DNA of 336 nt from Escherichia coli (GTDB lineage: Bacteria > Pseudomonadota > Gammaproteobacteria > Enterobacterales > Enterobacteriaceae), in the NCBI RefSeq assembly GCF_003334385.1, contig NZ_QOWN01000198.1. One strand, given 5' to 3'. The notes below the pieces were generated by a model. That model did no database searches. It was given only the letters and a program-made list of their open reading frames with translations, and was not told the origin of the DNA. How positions within the stretch are numbered: the first letter of the stretch is position 1; every line of letters starts with the position of its first letter. Shown here one piece after another: positions 1 to 336 of this stretch. The position numbers and the translations under genes are program-made.

Positions 1-27
1 GGCGACGCCGCCCTGACCACATCGTAG
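1..27 (+). CDS. Possible 3' end of an upstream protein-coding gene (partial; C-terminus ...GDAALTTS, stop TAG 25-27); product unknown
   Basis: Frame 1 reads GGC GAC GCC GCC CTG ACC ACA TCG TAG. It is open from the window edge to the TAG at 25-27, with GC-rich third positions typical of a coding frame. Only 8 codons are visible, so this is weak. Frame 2 (stop 14-16) and frame 3 (stop 58-60) cannot be excluded. Confidence 0.3.
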   Translation, partial: GDAALTTS

Positions 28-34
28 TGTTTAA

Positions 35-63
35 ATGTCATGAATCCTCCCGGTCGGGATAAT
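35..63 (+). promoter_or_regulatory. Candidate sigma70-type promoter: -35 ATGTCA (35-40), 17-bp spacer, -10 GATAAT (58-63); predicted start near 70
   Basis: The hexamers match the TTGACA/TATAAT consensus at 4/6 and 5/6 with the optimal 17-bp spacing. This is a pattern match only; there is no experimental or comparative support. Confidence 0.25.
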
Positions 64-143
64 GTTGTGAGTCAGATGAGGGGCGGGCTGAAGTCCGGAA
101 GTTACAGGACAATGGCAGGAGGAAGACTACAGCCCGCAATACG

Positions 144-168
144 AAAAAGGCCGCGCAGTTGCGCAGCC
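144..168 (-). terminator. Minus-oriented intrinsic-terminator-like hairpin: GGCUGCGC-AACU-GCGCGGCC followed by UUUUU
   Basis: On the minus-strand RNA the stem (plus coordinates 168-161 pairing with 156-149) is 8 bp including one G-U wobble, with a 4-nt loop, followed directly by U5 (plus 148-144) and then CGUAUU. On the plus strand the same stem has a C/A mismatch and no U tract, so the orientation signal favours minus. Confidence 0.4.
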
Positions 169-195
169 TTATGAATTCTGGTTAAAATCCATTCG

Positions 196-201
196 ATTAT
201 A
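196..201 (-). promoter_or_regulatory. Perfect -10 hexamer TATAAT on the minus strand (plus sequence ATTATA); no convincing -35 or TG extension
   Basis: This is an exact consensus -10 in an AT-rich context, about 30 nt upstream (minus sense) of the minus-oriented terminator hairpin at 168-144. The -35 candidates (CAACAG or GCAACA) are poor. A chance TATAAT in an AT-rich window of this size is not unlikely. Confidence 0.2.
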
Positions 202-223
202 AAAATGTATATCTCATGCTGTT

Positions 224-250
224 GCCCGAACCCACTCGGGCTTTTTTTTT
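224..250 (+). terminator. Rho-independent (intrinsic) terminator, plus strand
   Basis: GCCCGA (224-229) pairs perfectly with TCGGGC (236-241), with a 6-nt loop ACCCAC, immediately followed by T9 (242-250). The upstream flank is not A-rich, so the signal is oriented for plus-strand transcripts. Confidence 0.85.
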
Positions 251-254
251 GCCC

Positions 255-280
255 ACAAGAAAGCCCCTCCGGAGAGGGGC
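255..280 (-). terminator. Probable intrinsic terminator for a minus-strand transcript entering from the right
   Basis: A perfect 7-bp GC-rich stem, GCCCCTC (263-269) with GAGGGGC (274-280), has a 4-nt loop. On the minus-strand RNA it is followed by UUUCUUGU (plus 262-255). On the plus strand it is followed by GGAGAGUGG with no U tract, so orientation favours minus. It sits about 12 nt downstream of a possible minus-strand stop codon (293-295). Confidence 0.45.
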
Positions 281-292
281 TGGAGAGTGGCG

Positions 293-336
293 CTATGTGC
301 CATTGCATGGTGCCGGGTGCCTCCCGGTGAGTTCAG
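293..336 (-). CDS. Possible 3' end of a minus-strand protein-coding gene (partial; C-terminus ...ELTGRHPAPCNGT, stop TAG = plus 295-293); product unknown
   Basis: This minus-strand frame is open from the window edge to a TAG whose reverse complement is CTA at 293-295, with the minus-oriented hairpin 12 nt downstream. Only 13 codons are visible and one is a rare AGG. The alternative frame with TGA at 333-335 is also possible. Very weak. Confidence 0.2.
   Translation of the reverse strand, partial: ELTGRHPAPCNGT

Follow-up and report, generated by a model that had tools for sequence, protein, structure and literature searches.

The stretch of DNA analysed here (336 nucleotides, referred to as the window) is 100% identical to positions 2990000-2990335 of the E. 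coli EC2 chromosome, accession NZ_CP058571, in which window positions 194-250 correspond to 2990193-2990249. The window is a "moron" spacer in the late operon of a lambdoid E. coli prophage, and in the annotated parent locus of EC2 the late operon is oriented along the minus strand of the window. The order of the parent locus is antiterminator Q, DNA methylase, tRNA-Ile and tRNA-Arg, a tolA-like cargo gene, the spacer, nanS-p, DUF1378, DUF826, holin and lysozyme. Between the tolA-like gene and nanS-p, the spacer carries an STnc100-type sRNA gene on the minus strand and then an anti-sRNA gene on the plus strand, the order published for such dyads. According to the RefSeq annotation of the identical locus, nanS-p encodes a carbohydrate esterase of the SASA family and the tolA-like cargo gene encodes 142 amino acids. 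We noticed that this cargo gene, which occupies the stx position (parent-locus 6567-6995, minus strand), bears the product name 'cell envelope integrity protein TolA' at only 142 amino acids, and that its N-terminus (…LILASLTTGC) resembles the signal peptide of a lipoprotein. Calling it TolA is probably an over-annotation. The features of the window, in window coordinates, are as follows.

1..59, minus strand: start of the nanS-p gene, with the ATG at 41..39 and the Shine-Dalgarno sequence GGGAGG at 51..46; the RefSeq CDS ends at parent-locus 6041.
59..48, minus strand: small hairpin over the nanS-p Shine-Dalgarno sequence, predicted by the minus-strand fold.
83..137, minus strand: conserved stem-loop of the nanS-p leader, with an outer stem 83-90/130-137 and an inner stem 92-96/124-128, from covariation and fold.
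142..170, minus strand: terminator-like hairpin on the late-operon strand, a 10-bp stem at 170..147 followed by UUUUU, from the terminator scan.
183..188, plus strand: -10 hexamer TAAAAT, 5 nt before C194, with a -35-like TTGCGC at 159-164 and an 18-bp spacer.
194..250, plus strand: anti-sRNA gene of the AsxR/AgvB/EcOnc03 family, about 57 nt, CGAUUAUAAAAAUGUAUAUCUCAUGCUGUUGCCCGAACCCACUCGGGCUUUUUUUUU, from an Rfam match and homology, with the 5' end inferred.
194..209, plus strand: variable 5' targeting region of 16 nt, a fourth allele, predicted to be unstructured, from allele comparison and the centroid fold.
224..250, plus strand: intrinsic terminator, stem 224-229/236-241, loop ACCCAC and U9 at 242-250, from the terminator scan; presumed Hfq proximal-face site.
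251..336, minus strand: 3' 86 nt of an sRNA of the STnc100/PasD/EcOnc27 type, with its terminator stem at 281..262, from Rfam STnc100; the gene extends to about 460.

Partial or full copies of the window are present in 2371 of 5426 complete E. coli genomes. About 350 phage records, predominantly of Stx-converting phages, also match the window at about 86% identity. A scan of GTDB species representatives for the range of the family yielded a sole match, the 888-bp contig NZ_JPLE01000080.1 of the Xanthomonas pisi DSM 18956 assembly. This contig agrees with the AsxR/STnc100 spacer of the Stx2 phage Sp5 in all stretches compared by eye and is presumably contaminating E. coli or phage DNA. The range of the anti-sRNA family thus looks restricted to prophages of E. 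coli and Shigella.

An earlier reading made from the letters of the window alone (the sequence-only reading) had proposed an Hfq-type sRNA on the plus strand that ends at a strong terminator at 224-250. Such an sRNA is very probably encoded here. The terminator scan recovered the 6-bp stem 224-229/236-241 followed by nine U at 242-250, the window as a whole holding 4 terminator-like sites (0.3 expected in shuffles), and the stretch at 181-222, described as A/U-rich, has a G+C content of 26%. The same reading had suggested looking for compensatory changes in the terminator stem. Our structure alignment comprised 45 unique 345-nt regions from 117 of the loci listed; the stem is invariant in all 45. 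The strand and the terminator had been read correctly, and the Rfam match places the RNA in the AsxR family (RF02703, positions 194-246, plus strand), at 63.0 bits, a score that equals the gathering score of 63 and does not exceed it. The AgvB family (RF02702) also matched on the plus strand, with 43.4 bits, under its gathering score of 56. Since the window allele scores exactly the AsxR gathering score, we note as an aside that the Rfam threshold may have been set on this very allele. The remaining Rfam matches (Leu_leader, OmrA-B, MicX and others) all fell far under their gathering scores and were rejected as terminator-like chance matches. Over the 3' 38 nt, the window RNA is identical to EcOnc03 at 38 of 38 positions, to AsxR at 36 and to AgvB at 35.

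Among the new RNAs that Tree et al. 2014 (PMC4104026) found bound to Hfq in E. coli O157, AgvB, AsxR and EcOnc03 were the most abundant. These anti-sRNAs are 51-60 nt long on Northern blots, have primary 5' ends as mapped by RLM-RACE, are destabilised in the absence of Hfq and consist of a conserved 3' part of about 42 nt joined to a variable 5' part of 14-18 nt; the Hfq-binding prophage sRNAs are arranged as a dyad (Tree et al. 2014, PMC4104026). The window RNA is a member of a family known since 2014 and held in Rfam, and what is uncharacterised is its 5' allele, not the kind of sRNA as the sequence-only reading had it. The U9 tail and terminator are compatible with Hfq binding; a test for ARN motifs of the Hfq distal face was uninformative because, under the definition used, AsxR itself fails it.

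To place the 5' end we relied on homologues. When the Sakai prophages Sp5, Sp9 and Sp10 are aligned with the window, CCTGGTTAAAAT is invariant and is followed by 5 nt and then by CGAT, and the 5' ends of the homologues mapped by RLM-RACE fall at the same CGAT that stands at window position 194. On this basis, C194 is the most likely first nucleotide of the window RNA, which gives a length of about 57 nt. The family set comprised at least 120 IMG/VR loci, collected by a pattern scan, together with reference loci, at least 129 members in all. The box GGTTAAAAT is invariant in 129 of 129 family members among the loci listed, and both TAAAAT and TTGCGC are kept in all 45 unique sequences among the loci listed. 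Our promoter scan gave no call at the 183-188 site because the -35 matches the consensus at only 3 of 6 positions; the assignment of the promoter rests on sequence conservation.

Downstream on the plus strand, and tail-to-tail with the anti-sRNA, lies the end of the second sRNA of the dyad. Rfam STnc100 (RF02076) matched at 336..251 on the minus strand with 70.9 bits, above the gathering score, the 5' end being cut by the window edge; in the parent locus the full-length match at 6460..6251 (window 460..251) reached 179.1 bits. We also noticed that the tail of the STnc100-type terminator is U-poor in the window (UUCUUGUGGGC) as compared with the Sp5 copy.

The structured core of the window belongs to the other strand. 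A GC-rich structured core at 83-168 had been described as the 5' domain of a plus-strand RNA. Its composition (59% G+C) and its helix 83-90/130-137 were borne out, the suggested search for compensatory changes in this helix being positive (84/136 is C-G in 27 and T-A in 15 of the 45 unique sequences; in the inner stem, 92/128 is A-T in 31 and G-C in 5), while the strand had to be changed. In the hairpin at 147-170, the 45 unique sequences gave 364 Watson-Crick pairs, 69 pairs that form on the minus strand only (G.U there, C.A on the plus strand), 1 that forms on the plus strand only and 16 unpaired; the stem at 83-137 has 47 minus-only wobble cells versus 4 plus-only. It is because of this combined asymmetry, 116 minus-only versus 5 plus-only, that we assign the structured core at 83-170 to the minus strand, in the nanS-p leader. 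Folding of minus-strand 42-193 gave z = -4.4, with none of 200 shuffles as good, as compared with z = -2.2 for plus-strand 70-250. No Rfam family matched the minus-strand leader elements of 42-193. The minus-strand elements are best read, from sequence and predicted fold, as the leader of nanS-p in a late or read-through transcript, carrying a second terminator after that of STnc100, a stem-loop and a Shine-Dalgarno hairpin. These three elements might insulate the lysis genes from read-through of cargo and sRNA transcription, or control nanS-p translation. More generally, a fold that is spotted in raw sequence can turn out to be that of the opposite strand.

A comparison of the 5' regions revealed discrete alleles on the constant 3' part. 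Among the 129 loci listed there are only four 5' alleles: AgvB-type (54), window-type (32), EcOnc03-type (25) and AsxR-type (18). Single-base variants aside, we saw no intermediates between them in these loci. The 16-nt 5' region of the window allele, which is unpaired in the centroid fold, is identical to AsxR at 12 of 16 positions, nucleotides 1-7 and 9-12 being the same. The window allele appears mosaic-like, with a 5' region near AsxR, a 3' part equal to EcOnc03 and an adjoining STnc100 terminator near the Sp10 copy. About 150 complete E. coli records (of the 5426 genomes), many of them from human isolates, carry its promoter and RNA with at least 99% identity. Among the loci listed, all four alleles lie upstream of nanS-p, and linkage to Stx holds for 18 of 18 loci with the AsxR allele whereas it holds for 1 of 31 with the window allele. 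In the loci listed, the cargo neighbours of the window allele are TolA-like in 8, TerB-like in 4, Stx in 1 and other genes in 16, with 2 loci too short to classify. The exact sequence of the allele was not found in the text of the literature searched.

AsxR neutralises FnrS and AgvB neutralises GcvB. Pairing of the window allele was screened with RNAduplex, the targets being full-length FnrS and GcvB, the specific sites in these two, and 21 core sRNAs of K-12 as a panel. The CACAACA decoy of GcvB R1 that AgvB carries is absent from the window allele, and pairing to GcvB R1 reached -3.6 kcal/mol for the window allele versus -19.5 kcal/mol for AgvB. The top of the panel for the window allele was GcvB R2 at -9.0 kcal/mol, AAAUGUAUA pairing with UGUACAUUU, a value that 57% of shuffled queries equalled or bettered. 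As to the controls, the panel returned GcvB R1 clearly for AgvB, but for AsxR it returned FnrS only as a tie, with a shuffle fraction of 0.96. We therefore rejected in-silico target assignment as evidence: it is without power, its best match is at chance (0.57) and the validated AsxR-FnrS pair is not recovered. GcvB R2 is a weak lead as the partner of the window allele. In the same panel, EcOnc03 of Sakai Sp9 pairs with the GcvB R1 region over 12 consecutive positions, G.U pairs included, at -13.3 kcal/mol, no better than shuffles; EcOnc03 might be a second GcvB sponge.

We consider it highly probable that plus-strand 194-250 is the gene of a short prophage anti-sRNA of the AsxR/AgvB/EcOnc03 family, an sRNA sponge that is transcribed independently and binds Hfq. 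The analysis established homology, conservation of the promoter, genomic position and the distinctness of the allele, and also that the allele has lost the motifs through which AsxR and AgvB pair. By analogy with its relatives, we infer that the window RNA is transcribed with C194 as its 5' end, binds Hfq and acts as a sponge. A dedicated promoter (-10 TAAAAT at 183-188) would drive transcription of the anti-sRNA, antisense to the late operon, as far as the 224-241 hairpin and U9. The terminator and U tail would bind Hfq, as they do in the characterised relatives, and the unstructured 16-nt 5' region would pair with a core-genome sRNA, inactivating or destabilising it. Loss of that core sRNA would in turn de-repress its targets in the lysogen.

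The longer RNA envisaged by the sequence-only reading, an sRNA of about 180 nt that would start near 70 from a promoter at 35-63 and consist of the structured 5' domain at 83-168, the A/U linker and the terminator, is very improbable. The promoter does match the sigma-70 consensus at 9 of 12 positions, and plus-strand 70-250 folds better than shuffles (z = -2.2). However, the promoter overlies the ATG (41-39) and Shine-Dalgarno sequence (46-51) of nanS-p, and its -10 at 58-63 is not conserved, reading GATAAT in 21, GATAGT in 16 and GGGATT in 6 of the homologues. The wobble asymmetry of 116 to 5 and the z of -4.4 place the structure on the minus strand, and the -10 box that is invariant is the one at 183-188. 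Moreover, the primary ends of the homologues lie at CGAT, their Northern bands are 51-60 nt long, and the Hfq peaks of AsxR, AgvB and EcOnc03 span 49-54 nt (for the AsxR orthologue, a band of 54 nt and a peak of 49 nt); the orthologous spacer of Sp5, as far as the esterase gene, has no Hfq peak listed besides that of AsxR. A 3'UTR-derived sRNA, also mentioned in that reading, is not what lies here because there is no upstream plus-strand gene: the flanking genes are all on the minus strand, and the only frame in the region, ORF 40-174 (44 amino acids), is intact in only 16 of 45 unique homologues. That ORF had rightly been judged to have no credible coding potential, and we rejected it as a coding gene, its frame or start codon being lost in the other 29 of the 45.

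Two further explanations accept the short RNA and differ in what it does. It is unlikely, though more probable than the 180-nt RNA, that the window allele works as an AsxR orthologue and has kept the ability to sponge FnrS in spite of the change of U8 to A. The allele keeps 10 of the 11 AsxR-FnrS seed pairs, shares nucleotides 1-7 and 9-12 with AsxR and has AsxR as its best Rfam match. Against this, the U8-to-A change interrupts the 8-bp contiguous AsxR-FnrS helix, leaving 4 + 3 bp, and with the FnrS terminator loop as partner the RNAduplex energy weakens from -7.7 kcal/mol for AsxR to -5.0 kcal/mol, near the -3.9 and -4.1 kcal/mol of the non-FnrS alleles; in addition, the window allele mostly stands without a link to stx in the loci listed, whereas the AsxR allele there is always linked. 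Lower in probability than FnrS sponging, and improbable in our view, is an action mainly in cis, with no target in trans. In that case the RNA, or simply its convergent transcription and terminator, would regulate by antisense, or insulate against, minus-strand transcription that reads through from the cargo gene and STnc100 towards nanS-p and the lysis genes. The RNA is a perfect complement to minus-strand 250..194 of late or read-through transcripts, its gene sits between the minus-strand terminators at 281..262 and 170..147, and all four alleles are found upstream of nanS-p. But two family members have demonstrated targets in trans, FnrS and GcvB, and the presence of discrete 5' alleles with an unchanging scaffold suggests that trans specificity is under selection; regulation in cis would need no variable 5' region.

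Within the preferred reading of the RNA as a trans-acting sponge, we tentatively propose, at somewhat less than even confidence, that the 16-nt region defines a fourth specificity class, which would sponge a core sRNA other than FnrS or GcvB R1 and so rewire a host regulon in lysogens. This class would be the second commonest in the loci listed, and its carriers are mostly non-Stx prophages of human and extraintestinal E. coli. The target of the anti-sRNA is known for two of the four alleles, and the window allele is common and largely outside Shiga-toxin phages. Once identified, its partner would reveal how host sRNA networks are reprogrammed by ordinary prophages that carry no toxin, and would also test whether exchanging the 5' end on a fixed scaffold serves as modular targeting.

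Among the known systems, EcOnc03 of Sakai Sp9 has the same promoter box, the same dyad position upstream of nanS-p and an identical conserved 3' 38 nt; it differs in its variable 5' region, 21 nt (CGAUAAAAAUGACAAUGCAAG) as compared with the 16 nt of the window allele (CGAUUAUAAAAAUGUA), and is itself without a validated target. AsxR (EcOnc02, Stx2 phage Sp5), the best Rfam match, shares the length of the 5' region, the position, the strand logic and the terminator, whereas AsxR proper scores 88.1 bits as against 63.0 for the window, the four 5' changes break contiguous FnrS pairing, and the cargo is stx2AB in place of the tolA-like gene. AgvB (EcOnc01, Sp10 and Sp17) has the same scaffold (35/38) and dyad architecture, but the window stays under the AgvB gathering score. 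STnc100/PasD/EcOnc27 (sRNA103) runs convergently to the anti-sRNA, an arrangement already published for EcOnc27/AsxR and EcOnc06/AgvB; it is on the other strand and mostly outside the window. [quoted passage not shown] Identity of the window RNA with one of the Pas sRNAs of EPEC was considered and rejected: PasA and PasC differ in probe and position, and PasD2 corresponds to the STnc100 slot. At the PP2 and PP4 loci of EPEC E2348/69 there is no anti-sRNA, and the EPEC RIL-seq data are not usable for the anti-sRNA because these prophages carry none.

In the sponges SroC (of GcvB), 3'ETS-leuZ and chbBC (of ChiX), base-pairing titrates or destabilises an Hfq-dependent sRNA, which is also how the window RNA is proposed to act. 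SroC, 3'ETS-leuZ and chbBC are processed from mRNAs or tRNA precursors, whereas the window RNA, by analogy with its family, would be a primary transcript from a prophage promoter of its own.
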